Virus record (IMG/VR): IMGVR_UViG_3300020463_003399
Span: 1 to 64,000 of that record
Direction: 5' to 3' (one strand)
Length of the DNA stretch: 64,000 nucleotides
From: a virus
This document shows positions 1,482-58,260 of the stretch, piece by piece; the stretch's first letter is position 1; each line of letters starts with the position of its first letter. The notes beneath the pieces are model-generated. The model was not told where the DNA came from. It did no database searches and was given only the letters and a program-made list of their open reading frames with translations. Made by a program: the position numbers and the translations under genes.

Positions 1482-1602
1482 ATGGCATAGAAAACAAACT
1501 GAATACTGGCAAAAGAAATTTAATGTAGACGCATATGGTCTTGCATGGATTGCCTGGGCTAAAGGTCTTGTAATGGGTTTATTGATTGCTTGGTTTATTT
1601 AA
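1474..1602 (+). CDS. small membrane protein (42 aa; start revised from 1402)
   Basis: GGAGGAG RBS before ATG 1474; C-terminal TM helix YGLAWIAWAKGLVMGLLIAWFI. Confidence 0.55.
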   Translation: MIKWHRKQTEYWQKKFNVDAYGLAWIAWAKGLVMGLLIAWFI

Positions 1603-2125
1603 CACCATCGATACAATGATATTCAAATCTTTCAGTATTGTATAACCAAAATTCTTCTGTACTTAAAACTATCCAAGTACCATATTTCTCAGAATTATAT
1701 TTAACATGAATAGGGCTTCTCCAGCCTTTATTCAATAATACTTCTTGAAATGCTACGTAAGTTCCCTTACGACTAAATTTCATAAAAACGATATTCACAT
1801 CATTTTCTTCTGCGATATCCATAGTCTGATTTATCCAACCTTCTAAAAGCGGAATTTTTTTATTGTGTAGAAAATGGTGAAAAGGAAAATCAGCATAATT
1901 TTTGCATTCGCAATTAAAATACTTCCAATTATCAGGAGGTATAATATCTCCTTTAAAACCTCTTACTTGTCCTTCACTTAAATTAGATGCTCTATGGAAA
2001 TTACTTCCACCTATATATGCACCACTATTAGGTACACGTACAAAGCTACCATTATATTTCTCACTTAGGAACTTAGCTAACTCTCTTTCATAGCTACTAC
2101 CTTTTGCTTTACTTTTACTTGGCAT
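1595..2125 (-). CDS. Holliday junction resolvase (Hjc-like PD-(D/E)xK nuclease)
   Basis: KGSSYERE, PNSGA, GDII and ECKN motifs. Confidence 0.75.
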   Translation of the reverse strand: MPSKSKAKGSSYERELAKFLSEKYNGSFVRVPNSGAYIGGSNFHRASNLSEGQVRGFKGDIIPPDNWKYFNCECKNYADFPFHHFLHNKKIPLLEGWINQTMDIAEENDVNIVFMKFSRKGTYVAFQEVLLNKGWRSPIHVKYNSEKYGTWIVLSTEEFWLYNTERFEYHCIDGVK

Positions 2126-2754: not shown

Positions 2755-2990
2755 TTACAATATTGGCATTCCTGCCTTTTTACTCATTTCAAAGTTTTTC
2801 TCAATAATTTTATTGAGATGCTTAATATGAGACACTGGCATATCGTGTAGATCCCGAATCGAAACCCCACCTCTCATATACCAACTTAATTCTAACAAAT
2901 TATAGTGTAGTTTGTCAAGTTCTTTTTCAAACTTTTTTTGTTTTTCTACAATTTCTTCACCGCTGGCGGTTGCTAACCAGCTACGGAAAA
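2755..2990 (-). CDS. -1 frameshift extension of the upstream gene (gp51/tail-chaperone-like C-terminal domain)
   Basis: Open -1 frame FRSWLATASGEEIVEKQKKFEKELDKLHYNLLELSWYMRGGVSIRDLHDMPVSHIKHLNKIIEKNFEMSKKAGMPIL*, with no good start of its own, entered at slippery site A AAT TTT (2994-2988). Confidence 0.75.
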
Positions 2991-3818
2991 ATTTATAGGG
3001 TTCATTTCTAAGCTAATTGTCTCTTTATGACCGCAATCTTCAACTGGACAAACAAAGTTAAACTTGTTTAATTCTGCTGGTTTTCTTGTAATTTTTTCTA
3101 CTGATTTGTTGATATTAGTTACTAAACTTGCAGGTATATTAGCTAGAAATTCATTAATTTGTACTCTATCTGTTATATCTGCCTCTTTAGTACGTATCAT
3201 AGAAACTGTTTCAGATAATAAATCTACATTTTGTCTAGCAACACGTTCAAAACTTGAATAAAAACGTTTGGCAAGTTCTAACTCATCAGCATCATCTTTA
3301 CTTTGTGTTTTGATGTTATTAACAATTCTTTGTTCTTCTAGCTGAATGAGAGCAACCCGTGTTACACTCTCTAAACTCGGTGGTTTAACATGTATCTCTA
3401 AATCTTCATACATTATAGGTTCTACAACATCTATATCTGGAAATTTGTTCAACAAAAAGTTAATGTCAATGTTAAAATCGCTTTGATTATCACATTTAGT
3501 ACATTTGTGTGTATGTGTGACTTCTTTTCCATATGTAGCATAGCTGATAGCTAAAAATAATGCCTCAGCATCAATGTTGCATAAGTTTCTTGGGTTCGGT
3601 ATTGATGGACAACAACTTTTAAACAAACTAATCATAGCTTCACCGTTTAATAGTGAGTCAGGGTTTCTTAAAGTTATTTCATCAATAGCCGTCATAGGCA
3701 TAACGCCTATTTCATCAATAATAGTTTGGTCTATTTCAGGATTAAATCTTCCTTTAGTAGGCAAACTTACATAAATTGCCGGCTTTCTAAAATACTTAGT
3801 TAGCGGATTCTCGTTCAT
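2973..3818 (-). CDS. baseplate hub/tail assembly chaperone (T4 gp26-like)
   Basis: NPL..YFRKPAIYVSLP N-terminus, MTAIDEI, two Cys pairs (CTKC, CPVEDC), C-terminal NF; divergent from the tape-measure-like gene. Confidence 0.7.
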   Translation of the reverse strand: MNENPLTKYFRKPAIYVSLPTKGRFNPEIDQTIIDEIGVMPMTAIDEITLRNPDSLLNGEAMISLFKSCCPSIPNPRNLCNIDAEALFLAISYATYGKEVTHTHKCTKCDNQSDFNIDINFLLNKFPDIDVVEPIMYEDLEIHVKPPSLESVTRVALIQLEEQRIVNNIKTQSKDDADELELAKRFYSSFERVARQNVDLLSETVSMIRTKEADITDRVQINEFLANIPASLVTNINKSVEKITRKPAELNKFNFVCPVEDCGHKETISLEMNPINFSVAG

Positions 3819-3929: not shown

Positions 3930-6269
3930 ATGGCTGAAGGCGATGTAACAATAACAGGTTTGAGTCCGAATGTACCACAATGGTCTACGGAACAAACATT
4001 ACTTAAAGTAACGCAGATTTTACAGAAAGAAAATCTACTTACTTCACAGGTTATTAAAAGTATTAATGCCCTGGCGTCAGGTAATGCCGAAACAGTAAAA
4101 GAAGTACGTCAAAATGTACAACAAGCCAGAGAAACCGCTAAAGCAACAAAAGAATTAGAAAAAACCACTGCACAATCAGTACAAGAAGAAAAGAAGTCTT
4201 TTAATATCTTTAGTAATATCTACAAAGGCATAGAAAGACTAGTAAGAGTCGAAGAATTACAAAACACATTACAAGAAAAAAGAACAAAAGCACTTGAAGA
4301 AAAAATATTTCAGGCAACAATGAAATCGGCACCTGATGGCGATGTACAAGCGGCTAGATTAGATGCAAAAATGAAGGCGGCAACACAGGCAACGAAAAAC
4401 TCTGAAACAAATATTCTTAGTGGTGACATTAATCCTAACTTTTTTCAAAAAACTATTAAAGGTATTGCAGGCATGACAGTTGCGGCAGAAGGATTTAATG
4501 CATACTTAGGTCAAAACTTTGAAGATAGATTTAATCTTGCAAACGAAATAAGACAATCTGGTTTATTTGCAGGTTTAGATTCTGCTTCTGCAGGATTAAT
4601 TGGGTTTTCAGAAACAGTTAATGATAGTAACTTTACATTAGGTCAAGCGGCAGAATTTACTGAAAGATTTTCACAAGCAGTTGGTAGAACAGGCGTTGAG
4701 GCGGCAATGAGATTTGTAAACGCCATGGCATATGATAGGCAACTTGAAAATGGAGAAAAAGCATTAGGCTTGATGGAAAGATTTGGTATGGACTTTAGAC
4801 AAGTTAGTATTGTGTCAGGTGAATATCTAGAATCTTTAAGATCCGCAAACGTATTAGGAAAATTGTCACAAGCACAAATGGAAGCAGGCATGGAAGACTT
4901 TATGGATGGGGTTACTGCAACATCTAACGTCTTAAAAATTAGTTTAGAAGATTCTGCAAAGATGATTGCAGATAGATTGAACAGAGATGATATTGCTGGG
5001 TTCATGGCTCTTATGAGTGATGATAAAAAACAACAAACAACGGCGGCATTAGCAGGTGTTGGTCTTGAAGATGGAAGTGTATTAGGTGAGGCAATTATTA
5101 AAAGGATTGCAATGGGTAGTGAAGGATTTTTAGTTTCAGATGACAGAGCCCAACTAATGGAAACAGCCCAAGGTGCAGAAATAGTTAGACTTATTGAACA
5201 AGTAGGTTTAATTGCAGACCAAGGCGGAGACGTAAGTGCGGCGATGAAAACATTTATGTCTGGCGCAGGACAAATGGTTGATGCTAATCAAGGTGATGCT
5301 ACTGCTAAATTACTGATGGCTACTGGACAAGGCAATATAGGAAAAATGTTTACTGAAATTGAAAAATTTTCAGGAACTATTGGTGACATTGACAAAGGAA
5401 TTACACCGTTAGCTGAGGCAGACGTTGCCCAAGTTGCTAAAGACGATATTGCAAGAACGGCCACAGTTGCTATCGAAGGATTGGTAAACACACAAATGCC
5501 AGTCTTTGCAGAAAACTTAAAAGGTATCAATACACAAACTGCTGGTATAATTAACAACTTAGAACAAGTAGGACTTAATCTAGCACCAGCGGCCTCGGTA
5601 GCCGCTAGAACGGCAGGAATAATAACTGAGGCAGGCAGAGGCATTGGAGATGCAATGCTAGACGCCTTAGAATTTATAACATCACCATTAGATAATGCCG
5701 TTACAGGTACTGTAAAAGTAATTGGAGCAGATGATACTAAAACAGGACAAATTATTACTGATACTCAACAAACAGATGAAGAAAAAGATAAAAACATAGC
5801 AACAAAACGACAGACCAAAGATATCACAAAGGGCGAAGAAAGTTTACGTGAAGGTGGTATTGTTAATATGTTGATAGATGGTCAAGCAAAAAATATGTTT
5901 GACGAATTATTTGAAGTTTTATTAAAAGATAAAAATGCTGATATATCAGGAAACGTATCTGAACTATCAGATTTAATGGGATTTGATAGTTTCTTTAAAG
6001 ATGATGCAGAATCTATAAAAGAAAGTCAAGCAGAATTAATGAGAGCAATCGAAGCCATTAAAGAAAAAGACGAATTCAGGGCTGAAGGTGGACAAGAAAA
6101 ACTACAGAAATTATTAGATGCACTAGAAGCCATGCAATCAGAAACATATGAAAAGAGTATGTTCAGAGGTGACGAAGCAACAAAGGCAAGAAACGATGAA
6201 AACGCCACAGAAAAAGACGCTTTAGTTGGAGCAATTAGAGATTTAATAGACTCAATCAAGAGGCAATAA
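3930..6269 (+). CDS. putative tape measure protein
   Basis: 779 aa, Ala/Gly/Gln-rich, appears mostly helical; late promoter; next to the frameshifting chaperone. Confidence 0.5.
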   Translation: MAEGDVTITGLSPNVPQWSTEQTLLKVTQILQKENLLTSQVIKSINALASGNAETVKEVRQNVQQARETAKATKELEKTTAQSVQEEKKSFNIFSNIYKGIERLVRVEELQNTLQEKRTKALEEKIFQATMKSAPDGDVQAARLDAKMKAATQATKNSETNILSGDINPNFFQKTIKGIAGMTVAAEGFNAYLGQNFEDRFNLANEIRQSGLFAGLDSASAGLIGFSETVNDSNFTLGQAAEFTERFSQAVGRTGVEAAMRFVNAMAYDRQLENGEKALGLMERFGMDFRQVSIVSGEYLESLRSANVLGKLSQAQMEAGMEDFMDGVTATSNVLKISLEDSAKMIADRLNRDDIAGFMALMSDDKKQQTTAALAGVGLEDGSVLGEAIIKRIAMGSEGFLVSDDRAQLMETAQGAEIVRLIEQVGLIADQGGDVSAAMKTFMSGAGQMVDANQGDATAKLLMATGQGNIGKMFTEIEKFSGTIGDIDKGITPLAEADVAQVAKDDIARTATVAIEGLVNTQMPVFAENLKGINTQTAGIINNLEQVGLNLAPAASVAARTAGIITEAGRGIGDAMLDALEFITSPLDNAVTGTVKVIGADDTKTGQIITDTQQTDEEKDKNIATKRQTKDITKGEESLREGGIVNMLIDGQAKNMFDELFEVLLKDKNADISGNVSELSDLMGFDSFFKDDAESIKESQAELMRAIEAIKEKDEFRAEGGQEKLQKLLDALEAMQSETYEKSMFRGDEATKARNDENATEKDALVGAIRDLIDSIKRQ

Positions 6270-39000: not shown

Positions 39001-39057
39001 ATCATCAATTAACTTAAGAGGGAGGGAAACCTCCCTCTACTATAAAAGGAGTAAAAG

Positions 39058-40149
39058 ATGCCAAGAGCATTTGATGTAAGTAAATTTAGAAAGAGCATAA
39101 CAAAATCGGTACCCGGTGTTAGTGCAGGATTTCGTGATCCAGATACATGGGTATCAACAGGCAATTATTGTCTAAACAGATTAATTAGTGGAGACTTTCA
39201 TAAAGGTGTTCCATTAGGAAAAGTAACAGTACTAGCAGGCGAAAGTGGTGCAGGTAAATCATTTATTGCCGCAGGTAATGTTGTTAGAAATGCACAACAA
39301 AAAGGTATATACGTAATTCTTATCGATAGTGAGAATGCGTTAGATGAAAAATGGCTACATGCGTTAGATGTAGATACAAGTGAAGATAAGTTATTGAAAT
39401 TAAATGTAGCAATGATTGATGAAGTTGCTAAGATTATTAGTGATTTCATGAAAGGTTACAAAGACGATTACGCAGATGCAGATGATGAAGATAGACCAAA
39501 AGTACTCTTTGTACTTGATTCGCTTGGAATGATGTTAACACCAACAGATGTTGACCAATTCAATAAAGGTGATATGAAAGGTGATATGGGTCGTAAACCT
39601 AAGGCACTGGCGGCACTTGTAAGAAATTGTGTTAATATGTTTGGTGATTATAATGTAGGTATGGTTGCAACAAATCATACATATGCATCACAAGATATGT
39701 TTGACCCTGATGATAAAATTTCAGGTGGTCAAGGATTTATCTATGCGAGTTCGATTGTTGTTGCAATGAAAAAACTAAAATTAAAAGAAGACGAGGCAGG
39801 TAATAAAATTTCAGAAGTACGTGGTATTAGAGCCGCTTGTAAAGTTATGAAAACTCGTTATTCAAAACCTTTTGAAGGTGTGCAAGTAAAAATTCCATAC
39901 GAAACAGGAATGGATCCGTATAGCGGTCTAGTTGATTTCTTTGAATCAAAAGGTGTTCTTGTAAAGTCTGGTAATAAACTTGCTTATACAACTTCATCAG
40001 GTGAGATAATGTCAGAGTTCAGAAAAAACTGGACAGGTGATAAACTTGATGTTATCATGAAAGAATGGGGAACAAAAGATTTCTACGATGAATCAGAAGA
40101 ACTAGAGACTCTAGTAGAAGAAAAATTAGAAGTAAAAGAGGAAGCATAA
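39058..40149 (+). CDS. uvsX: RecA-like recombinase UvsX
   Basis: AGESGAGKS, DSENA, LDSLG, NHTY, SGGQGFIYASS. Confidence 0.92.
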   Translation: MPRAFDVSKFRKSITKSVPGVSAGFRDPDTWVSTGNYCLNRLISGDFHKGVPLGKVTVLAGESGAGKSFIAAGNVVRNAQQKGIYVILIDSENALDEKWLHALDVDTSEDKLLKLNVAMIDEVAKIISDFMKGYKDDYADADDEDRPKVLFVLDSLGMMLTPTDVDQFNKGDMKGDMGRKPKALAALVRNCVNMFGDYNVGMVATNHTYASQDMFDPDDKISGGQGFIYASSIVVAMKKLKLKEDEAGNKISEVRGIRAACKVMKTRYSKPFEGVQVKIPYETGMDPYSGLVDFFESKGVLVKSGNKLAYTTSSGEIMSEFRKNWTGDKLDVIMKEWGTKDFYDESEELETLVEEKLEVKEEA

Positions 40150-52201: not shown

Positions 52202-52214
52202 ATGAGTTTAATAT

Positions 52215-52886
52215 ATGTTTGATTGTAAATTTTGTGGGAAAACTTTTCAAAGAGAAAAGACTCTTTCTGCCCATATGTGCGAACAAAAACGCAGATGGGT
52301 TAATAAAGATTCTAAGTATGTTAGATTAGGTTTTCTCGCATATAATCGTTTCTATGAATTGACTACACAAGGTAGTAAAAAAAGAACATATGAAGATTTT
52401 GCAAGAAGTAAATATTACACAGGCTTTACAAAGTTTGGTAAATATATGCTAGATGTAAATGCAATCGACCCAGAAAAATTCGTTGACTTTGTTATAACAA
52501 CAAGTGTAAAACTTGATAAATGGACAAGCGATGCAGTTTATGAAACATATATTAGAGAACTTAATAAAAAAGAAACTGCCGAACGTGCAGTTGAAAGAGG
52601 CATCTTATTGATGCAACAATGGGCGAGGGAAAATGATAAACCGTATAATGTATTCTTTAGGGAGATTAGTAGGCCACGTGCTATACATTGGATCAAATCC
52701 GGACGCATTAGCCCTTGGATTATTTTTAATTCTGTATCTGGTAATGAACTTCTAAACAGTTTCAATGACCATGAATTAAATTTAATCAATGAATATCTTG
52801 AACCAACTTTTTGGACAAGAAAATTTGAAGTAAGAAAAGATGATGTATTATTTGTTAAAGATATATTACAAAAGGCAGGTATTTAA
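52215..52886 (+). CDS. hypothetical protein with N-terminal zinc finger
   Basis: CKFCGKTF..E.TL..HMC. Confidence 0.65.
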   Translation: MFDCKFCGKTFQREKTLSAHMCEQKRRWVNKDSKYVRLGFLAYNRFYELTTQGSKKRTYEDFARSKYYTGFTKFGKYMLDVNAIDPEKFVDFVITTSVKLDKWTSDAVYETYIRELNKKETAERAVERGILLMQQWARENDKPYNVFFREISRPRAIHWIKSGRISPWIIFNSVSGNELLNSFNDHELNLINEYLEPTFWTRKFEVRKDDVLFVKDILQKAGI

Positions 52887-53301: not shown

Positions 53302-53847
53302 ATGGGCTCAGATATGGATGATATTGATAATATGATTAAAAAGTATATTTACGAAAGTCCTGATGGCGGGAAAACAGTGTATCAAAGACCCTTTGGTGCA
53401 CCTCATGAAGAAAGAGAACTTGTTCCAAGTCAAGAAGAAAGAGACAAAATGGACGACAAGGAACTTATGAGATTAGCACATGAGTATAAAGAGTTATGCG
53501 ATGATGACGATGACATGACATTTGAATTAGATACATCAAATTCTCTATATGGTTTAGATACAACAAATACTATAACAATGTCAAGTATGCCTTCAATGGG
53601 TATGACACATTCTTTTTCATCATCAGCGGCACATACTTTGACGATTGGTGATGGTTATATGGATCCAGGCGATGATCCAATTGAAGAAATGGAAAAGAGA
53701 TTAACTGCTATAGAAGATAGATTAAAGATACTAAAACCAGACCCTAACAAGCTAAAAGAATATAAGATACTAGAAGGTCTATATGAACAGTATAAGGCGG
53801 CTGAGGCGCTTCTAAACGCACCAGGACCGGGCGATAAGAATGAATAA
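53302..53847 (+). CDS. hypothetical protein
   Basis: IYESPDGGKTVY motif; 181 aa. Confidence 0.6.
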   Translation: MGSDMDDIDNMIKKYIYESPDGGKTVYQRPFGAPHEERELVPSQEERDKMDDKELMRLAHEYKELCDDDDDMTFELDTSNSLYGLDTTNTITMSSMPSMGMTHSFSSSAAHTLTIGDGYMDPGDDPIEEMEKRLTAIEDRLKILKPDPNKLKEYKILEGLYEQYKAAEALLNAPGPGDKNE

Positions 53848-54304
53848 GACTATTACTTACAGTTGGCAAAATGTAGACAAAGCAATACAAACTATTGCTA
53901 TGCAAATGTATGAAAGTCAATGGAGACCTGATTACATAGTAGGTATTACACGTGGAGGATTAGTTCCAGCAGTAATGTTGTCTCATATGACTAATATACC
54001 AATGCATACTCTTTGTGTTCAGTTAGGTGCAGAAGGTCTTGAAGAAAATATTGAAAGCAATATTAAAATGGCAGGCGATGCCATTAATGGTAAAAACATT
54101 TTAATCATTGACGATATCAATAGAGGCGGTGATGCATTAGAATGGATTATAAATGATTGGGCTTTATCTGAGGAATCCTTACATGGAAATGTTAAATTTG
54201 CTTCACTAATTATAGATCCAAATTCTAAAGTTGATACAGATTTTTTCTATGAAGAATTAGATAATGAAAATGAAATGTGGGTCAACTTTCCTTGGGAACA
54301 ATGA
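53840..54304 (+). CDS. purine phosphoribosyltransferase-like (type I PRTase)
   Basis: IVGITRGGLVPA, PRPP-binding ILIIDDINRGG, WVNFPWE. Confidence 0.85.
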   Translation: MNKTITYSWQNVDKAIQTIAMQMYESQWRPDYIVGITRGGLVPAVMLSHMTNIPMHTLCVQLGAEGLEENIESNIKMAGDAINGKNILIIDDINRGGDALEWIINDWALSEESLHGNVKFASLIIDPNSKVDTDFFYEELDNENEMWVNFPWEQ

Positions 54305-57701: not shown

Positions 57702-58260
57702 TTCGATACAAGATATAGACTTTACAATAAACAAAGAAATGCTAATCGAAGAAAGTAAAGTTTGTGATTACGTACCTATCAATCGTGTAACTCTGAGGCG
57801 TGTAAAGATGGGAAGTTATGCAGAAACAAAAGGTAAGAAGTTTTCTGATTTTCTAAATGAAGAAGACAAAGATTGGTGGTTAAAGCAAAATACATGGCAA
57901 TCTAGTATGAATGCAGATGCAGAAATGTTATTTAAAATGCCAGAAACTACAAGAATACTTGCACACTTTAAAGAGAAATTACAAACAGAAAATATTGAGG
58001 CAAACTTCTTTACTCAAAAACAAGGCACAAGTGTAAAGATGCACGTAGATGTTGGAACACCATGTGCTATTAATTTTATTATAAAAGGCGAAGAAACGCC
58101 TATCGTATTTGAAGATGAAGGTACTTTCTTTTATAAAAATGCTTTGCTTAATGTAAGTAAAAAACATATGGTACCAGAACAAGAAACAACTGATAGAATG
58201 CTTTTCAAGTTAAGAATATTAGACTTAACTTTTGACGAAGCAAAGGAAAGGCTATGCTAA
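57691..58260 (+). CDS. 2OG-Fe(II)/cupin-like oxygenase, paralog 2
   Basis: HVD..CAIN, NALLN..HMV..R. Confidence 0.6.
   Translation: MVSNSIQDIDFTINKEMLIEESKVCDYVPINRVTLRRVKMGSYAETKGKKFSDFLNEEDKDWWLKQNTWQSSMNADAEMLFKMPETTRILAHFKEKLQTENIEANFFTQKQGTSVKMHVDVGTPCAINFIIKGEETPIVFEDEGTFFYKNALLNVSKKHMVPEQETTDRMLFKLRILDLTFDEAKERLC

Follow-up and report, generated by a model that had tools for sequence, protein, structure and literature searches.

The analyzed window is the 64-kb part of an 89.6-kb IMG/VR virus record; its DNA is of marine origin and AT-rich, with about 35% G+C. The whole record (G000) is classified in IMG/VR as a provirus; with its T4-like portal, its jumbo-phage hub module and a CheckV completeness of 24%, it looks like a piece of a lytic jumbo phage genome. 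One of the minus-strand genes of the window, located at positions 3818 to 2973, encodes a protein of 281 amino acids (aa) that belongs to the gp26/gp51 family of baseplate hub assembly proteins. The Pfam profile PF12322 (T4_baseplate) matches this protein with 52.8 bits against a cutoff of 24.5 and over profile positions 38 to 212 of 219, and the PHROG family phrog_150, annotated as "baseplate hub", matches it at 1e-19. Searches of PDB sequences with the hub protein, as well as with the extension described below, yielded no match.

The hub gene ends with the sequence CCT ATA AAT TTT TCC GTA GCT GGT TAG (…NPINFSVAG*), its TAG stop codon lying at 2975-2973. Within this stretch, the Asn and Phe codons form in zero frame a slippery heptamer, A_AAT_TTT (2994-2988, minus strand), which has the X XXY YYZ pattern. 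Six nucleotides (nt) past the heptamer begins a predicted hairpin (2981-2962, minus strand) that consists of a 6-bp stem, formed by GCTGGT (2981-2976) and GCCAGC (2967-2962), and of an 8-nt loop (2975-2968) holding the zero-frame TAG; its minimum free energy was calculated as −9.6 kcal/mol. The −1 frame is open from the heptamer for 77 codons (FRSWLATASGEEI…WYMRGG…KKAGMPIL; 2988-2755, minus strand) up to a TAA codon at 2757-2755. A slip by one base at the heptamer would join 277 zero-frame residues to these 77, giving a predicted long form of 354 aa (3818-2755, minus strand) with the junction …NPINF|FRSW… and with ETISLEMNPINFFR as the junction-spanning tryptic peptide. A first-pass annotation, made from the sequence alone, had proposed from these elements that a programmed −1 ribosomal frameshift fuses a gp26-like protein to a hidden C-terminal domain, and the heptamer, the hairpin with its spacer and the open −1 frame are exactly as it had described them. 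It had also noted that the extension lacks a start codon and a ribosome binding site of its own, which holds as well: the upstream stop of the −1 frame lies 22 nt ahead of the heptamer, and from there on the first ATG, GTG or TTG encountered in this frame is a TTG at 2898.

Taken by itself, this single gene provides only moderate evidence for frameshifting. In-frame slippery heptamers occur within the open reading frames (ORFs) of the window at a background rate of 0.0035 per codon, and in 5 of 55 window ORFs the −1 frame remains open for at least 70 codons past the stop, so that chance is not negligible without relatives; the conservation described below settles this question. Four plus-strand ORFs of the window (53839-54301, 57738-58257, 39057-40146 and 52214-52883; 0-based coordinates) have a −1 frame that is open for 71 to 268 codons past the stop, and three of the four also bear an in-frame slippery heptamer; these cases probably represent ordinary overlapping downstream genes.

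Conservation of the slippery heptamer and of the −1 frame

The locus was compared with 85 relatives, comprising six cultured jumbo phages (Atu_ph07, Phosso, CBB, PA5oct, RaK2 and XbC2) and 79 IMG/VR contigs, whose hub proteins share 32 to 84% identity with that of the window. All 85 carry an in-frame A_AAT_TTT and/or T_TTT_TT(C/A) located 9 to 45 nt ahead of the stop codon. A second set of 80 loci contained a slippery heptamer in 73, and T_TTT_TTC was present in every one of these 73 frameshift-type loci. The alignment that the first-pass annotation had suggested as a check found the heptamer retained in all frameshift-type loci of both groups; in the wider relatives, it takes the form T_TTT_TTC and lies one codon downstream of the position that it occupies in the window. 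Such conservation is far beyond what chance would produce.

The pattern of variation around the heptamer is also instructive. Among the 37 distinct marine relatives, the three A and five T residues are invariant, and the first A of the heptamer, at a third codon position, is retained whether the codon it belongs to reads GTA, ATA or GCA. Where the T-run comprises only five residues, as in the window, AAA always stands in front of it; where it comprises six, the upstream bases vary freely. This dependence on AAA, together with the invariant third-position A, indicates that selection acts on the slippery site as such. To our knowledge, neither A_AAU_UUU nor U_UUU_UUC ranks among the most efficient slippery sites of bacteria.

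The frame entered by the predicted slip is equally well preserved. Measured from the heptamer, the open −1 frame spans 72 to 79 codons in all 85 relatives; the +1 frame of the same relatives is open for just 1 to 25 codons. The encoded protein is conserved from the heptamer on, with the pattern FF-x-x-W/R-L…EEI…WYMRGG…N-x-E-x-S/T-K-K…, and most marine loci have no ATG ahead of the Met codon of WYMRGG, which lies 98 nt beyond the stop of the hub gene. Ahead of this Met, diversity is lowest at the second codon position, higher at the first and highest at the third, which is a coding pattern. The conservation across 85 loci and this type of diversity bear out the initial impression that the −1 frame is protein-like. 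An AlphaFold2 model of the extension consists of four helices and is entirely helical (pLDDT of 89). Foldseek searches of PDB and BFVD and VIA-wide searches, run with the models of the extension and of a natural long form (see below), returned generic helical matches only, so no fold can be assigned, and in HMMER scans of 29 extension peptides against PHROG, phrog_150 was not matched. A single metatranscriptome contig found in Logan covers positions 2714 to 2868 only.

The downstream hairpin

In the 37 marine relatives, the hairpin is paired in 95.5% of cells. Three observations favor a constraint on it at the RNA level. In the codon located in the 5′ arm, the third position is invariably C while the encoded residue varies among G, H, N, R and S; in the sequences with a broken 3′ arm, the same 5′ arm re-pairs with a displaced arm; and in 32 of 36 distinct marine sequences, the native sequence folds better than its synonymous resamples (P < 0.05). 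The hairpin of the window itself does not fold better than its resamples (P = 0.13), and a covariation test detected little covariation, not above that of shuffled alignments, in arms that are both also protein-coding. Outside the marine clade, no common structure was found, and the hairpin is absent or different. The conservation of the hairpin, which had been named as a further check, was therefore confirmed for the marine clade and not for the other clades, and the hairpin is probably a modest stimulator of slippage in the marine clade of the window only.

Natural single-ORF long forms and gene copy number

A search of 1.84 billion representatives with a profile of the extension found 415 proteins. 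The bulk of these were short ORF calls of 44 to 102 aa; about 20 clusters, however, consisted of proteins of 319 to 351 aa with the extension at their C terminus, and PF12322 was present in all 10 of these proteins that were scanned. The junction of these natural fusions (…LDLDxxxxFRxKLI..EEI…) is colinear with the zero-frame end and the −1 frame of the window. At seven such loci, the DNA contains a single Phe codon at the junction and no T-run, and these are therefore genuinely uninterrupted genes, which means that the long form exists as a real protein in nature. The model of a natural long form is one compact unit (pLDDT of 91, pTM of 0.86). Two further database proteins with parts of the extension stand apart: P0123, encoded on a contig of 656 nt, in which the extension domain follows an N terminus similar to 3-hydroxyacyl-CoA dehydrogenase, is probably chimeric, and P0125, in which the second zinc ribbon is joined straight to the middle of the extension, is a deletion or partial variant or an artifact.

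In all five records with a fused gene, a second PF12322 gene lies adjacent to it. The four loci that were read (L176 to L179), all from uncultured jumbo phages, have the long, fused gene and the short gene side by side (322-1395 and 1396-2265 in L176), and the second copy is devoid of the extension motif in each of them; in L176, it stops exactly at the end of the hub domain. These natural long forms resemble the predicted product of the window in domain order, in the colinear junction (…LDxxxxFRxKLI..EEI…WYMRG…) and in the presence of an adjoining short copy, but they differ from it in that two genes are used, with a single Phe codon at the junction and no recoding. Such a tandem pair of long and short PF12322 genes is a third architecture, next to the divergent genes 26 and 51 of T4 and the frameshift arrangement. 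The complete genomes of Atu_ph07, CBB, PA5oct and RaK2 contain one PF12322 gene each, whereas T4 contains two, a pattern of copy numbers which suggests that one short plus one long form is maintained, whether through two genes or through a single gene with a slip.

Relation to T4 gp26 and gp51

The comparison with T4 gp26 and gp51 made in the first-pass annotation proved apt. Both T4 proteins match PF12322 over the full length of the profile, and both belong to phrog_150, within which gp51 reaches about 45 profile positions further than gp26, so that gp26 (208 aa) and gp51 (249 aa) share both families with the window protein. They constitute a pair of versions, one short and one long, of which the long one has an additional C-terminal tail, in parallel to the two forms predicted here. 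In T4, however, the two versions are the products of two paralogous genes; gene 26 has no slippery site, ends with EFFELL* and is directly followed by gene 25, and the tail of gp51 is about 25 residues shorter than the extension of the window. Gene 26 of T4 is annotated with two products, gp26 and gp26′, the latter from an internal start. Both gp26 and gp51 are tabulated as hub assembly chaperones (Leiman et al. 2010, PMC3004832, Table 2), and gp51 is described in the same paper as essential, not present in the particle and lacking a known function.

Identity is too low for a direct HMMER alignment: a profile of the fused long form scored under 10 bits against gp26 and gp51 and was misaligned. 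Comparison by hhalign with the single sequence of gp51 was uninformative and family alignments were needed. With these, the 100 C-terminal residues of the long forms, zinc ribbon included, aligned with the 75 C-terminal residues of the gp51 family across 80 columns at a probability of 72%; the score was 30.0, compared with 11.5 ± 2.4 for column-shuffled controls, none of which (0 of 60) scored as high. When the zinc ribbon was removed and the tails alone were compared, the score was 21.7 against a null of 9.9 ± 1.8 (maximum of 15.0 in 100), with a probability of 28% over 38 columns located at both C termini. This weak similarity makes homology between the gp51 tail and the extension likely but not proven. 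In precomputed annotation, the gp51 homologues P0276 to P0367 carry a second Pfam family, PF28602, which is not listed for the fused protein P0124 and which presumably corresponds to the C-terminal tail of gp51.

Alternative explanations

The split frame could be explained by an indel in sequencing or assembly or by the decay of a once continuous gene, since homopolymer runs are prone to error and continuous homologues of 319 to 351 aa do exist. The same frame structure is, however, shared by 158 loci of different metagenomes and by six cultured phage genomes, the identical 281-aa protein is called on 9 to 10 contigs, and the junction of the natural fusions differs in sequence and lacks a T-run. 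Moreover, the site is spanned in contigs of three further samples and studies, and the single-base error that the first-pass annotation had named as a possible refutation was looked for in these independent marine contigs and not found. On these comparisons, an assembly error as the cause of the split is excluded, and we give this explanation as a whole a negligible probability. Stuttering of the RNA polymerase at the T-run, with insertion of an extra U into some transcripts, would yield the same long protein from an edited mRNA, and the site is indeed a homopolymer (T5 in the window, T6 in others). Known sites of transcriptional slippage are runs of about 8 to 9 residues or more, and the runs observed here are shorter than that. 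In addition, the lineages with five T residues always hold AAA in front of them, which would matter for slippage of tandem tRNAs and not for stuttering of the polymerase, and the hairpin of the marine clade lies at a spacing typical of ribosomal stimulators. We consider stuttering improbable, though less so than an indel.

Of the alternatives, the one with the best claim, even if we rate it as only slightly more probable than stuttering and still as a small chance, is that the downstream frame forms a small gene in its own right, whose product is not a fusion and whose translation relies on termination-reinitiation coupling or on a noncanonical start. It is favored by the ATGA overlap in Atu_ph07 and Phosso and the TAATG in XbC2, by the ORFs annotated at this place in Atu_ph07, Phosso, XbC2 and CBB (phrog_18291), and by the many database proteins of 44 to 102 aa that correspond to the extension. 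Given these start codons at the overlap, independent initiation may add to slippage or replace it in Atu_ph07, Phosso and XbC2. Elsewhere, the observations count against such initiation: apart from the TTG mentioned above, no ATG, GTG or TTG lies ahead of the WYMRGG Met in the window and in most marine relatives, and the extension of PA5oct contains no ATG at all. The residues that precede any start (FFRxWLxTAS..EI) are nevertheless conserved and show the coding pattern. The annotated starts vary between phages, the CBB ORF beginning at an internal ATG, and in RaK2 and PA5oct nothing is annotated at the extension. A small gene would also leave the universal conservation of the heptamer, its synonymous site included, and the colinearity of the natural single-ORF fusions over the junction without an explanation. 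Homologs that lack the heptamer and have their own start had been named in advance as grounds for rejecting the frameshift; the heptamer is kept in 85 of 85 relatives, and a start codon at the overlap is present in Atu_ph07, Phosso and XbC2.

Discussion

We consider programmed −1 ribosomal frameshifting, which would make a short and a long hub chaperone from one gene, the best explanation of this locus, with a probability of about 0.88. The first-pass proposal is supported by the conservation of the heptamer, by that of the extension and by the existence of natural fusions. According to the proposed mechanism, a single-copy gene of the gp26/gp51 family of hub assembly chaperones would be decoded in two ways. 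Most ribosomes would stop at the TAG at 2975-2973 and release the short form of 281 aa, while a fraction would slip back by one base at A_AAT_TTT, either with tRNA-Asn and tRNA-Phe slipping in tandem or, at the minimum, through P-site slippage on U_UUU, probably aided by the hairpin 6 nt downstream. The ribosomes that slipped would read 77 more codons and produce the long form of 354 aa with its predicted four-helix C-terminal domain. That slippage occurs, at some rate, is inferred from these signals in the sequence. By analogy with gp26 and gp51 and with lambda G/GT, both forms may be needed in a set ratio for initiation of the hub or tail.

A broader reading, to which we assign even odds, is that, as a rule, a contractile tail of T4 type requires both versions of one hub chaperone, short and long, at a defined ratio and that evolution has satisfied this requirement along three interchangeable routes: divergent paralogues, as in T4 26/51, tandem paralogues or a single gene recoded by a −1 frameshift. 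If true, this reading would carry the G/GT principle, by which one gene yields two forms, over to an apparently unrelated protein family and would provide a concrete, testable model for the roles of gp26 and gp51. The three alternative architectures would then serve as a natural experiment, one that points to a requirement for both forms, and the poorly understood gp26 and gp51 of T4 would be linked as the short and the long member of one system.

Frameshift-made pairs of tail assembly proteins are already known; the pair predicted here belongs to a different protein family. In lambda G/GT and P2 E/E+E′, a −1 slip near the 3′ end of the gene gives rise to a short and a C-terminally extended form, and Xu, Hendrix and Duda reportedly described in 2004 a conserved −1 frameshift in tail assembly chaperone genes. 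The arrangement in the window resembles these systems in that two forms would be made from one tail assembly gene and in that it is conserved despite sequence divergence. The proteins appear, however, to be unrelated, and the role of the window gene concerns the baseplate hub. The locus would add a second, apparently unrelated family to the classic tail assembly chaperones controlled by frameshifting. We found no joined coding sequence annotated in the records of the six cultured phages (Atu_ph07, Phosso, CBB, PA5oct, RaK2 and XbC2), no mention of a frameshift in the PA5oct and CBB papers, and no published report of this frameshift in searches of the full-text literature, the coverage of which does not extend to subscription journals. 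The annotation of a core gene would be corrected in every RaK2-, PA5oct- or Atu_ph07-like jumbo phage examined, several of which are candidates for phage therapy or biocontrol.

The first-pass annotation had further suggested that the gp26-like protein is a chaperone of the tape measure and that its transcription divergent from a tape-measure-like gene is unusual. The first suggestion is speculation based on an analogy of logic with lambda G/GT: the hub gene does not lie between tail tube and tape measure genes, the position characteristic of the lambda G/GT type, and no TAC family is among the Pfam or PHROG matches of the window protein. The second was mistaken. Gene 26 of T4 is likewise transcribed divergently from genes 51-27-28-29, so that the divergent layout, which is found also in RaK2, CBB, PA5oct and XbC2, is that of T4 and not unusual. 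The divergent neighbor in the window (3930-6269, plus strand) encodes a protein of 779 aa without any Pfam or PHROG match and is followed by the portal gene. Its language-model feature score in Atlas is 0.93 to TMP families, and an annotation note in RaK2 points the same way, which makes its identity as the tape measure a lead only; in RaK2, CBB and PA5oct, its homologues bear the annotation of virion structural proteins. On the other side, downstream of the hub gene, lies a gene for a PDDEXK_15/RusA-like Holliday junction resolvase (1595-2125, minus strand). The same slot is occupied by endonuclease VII in RaK2 and CBB and by a "Holliday junction resolvase" in Phosso, and the presence of a resolvase at this fixed position may reflect nonorthologous replacement.
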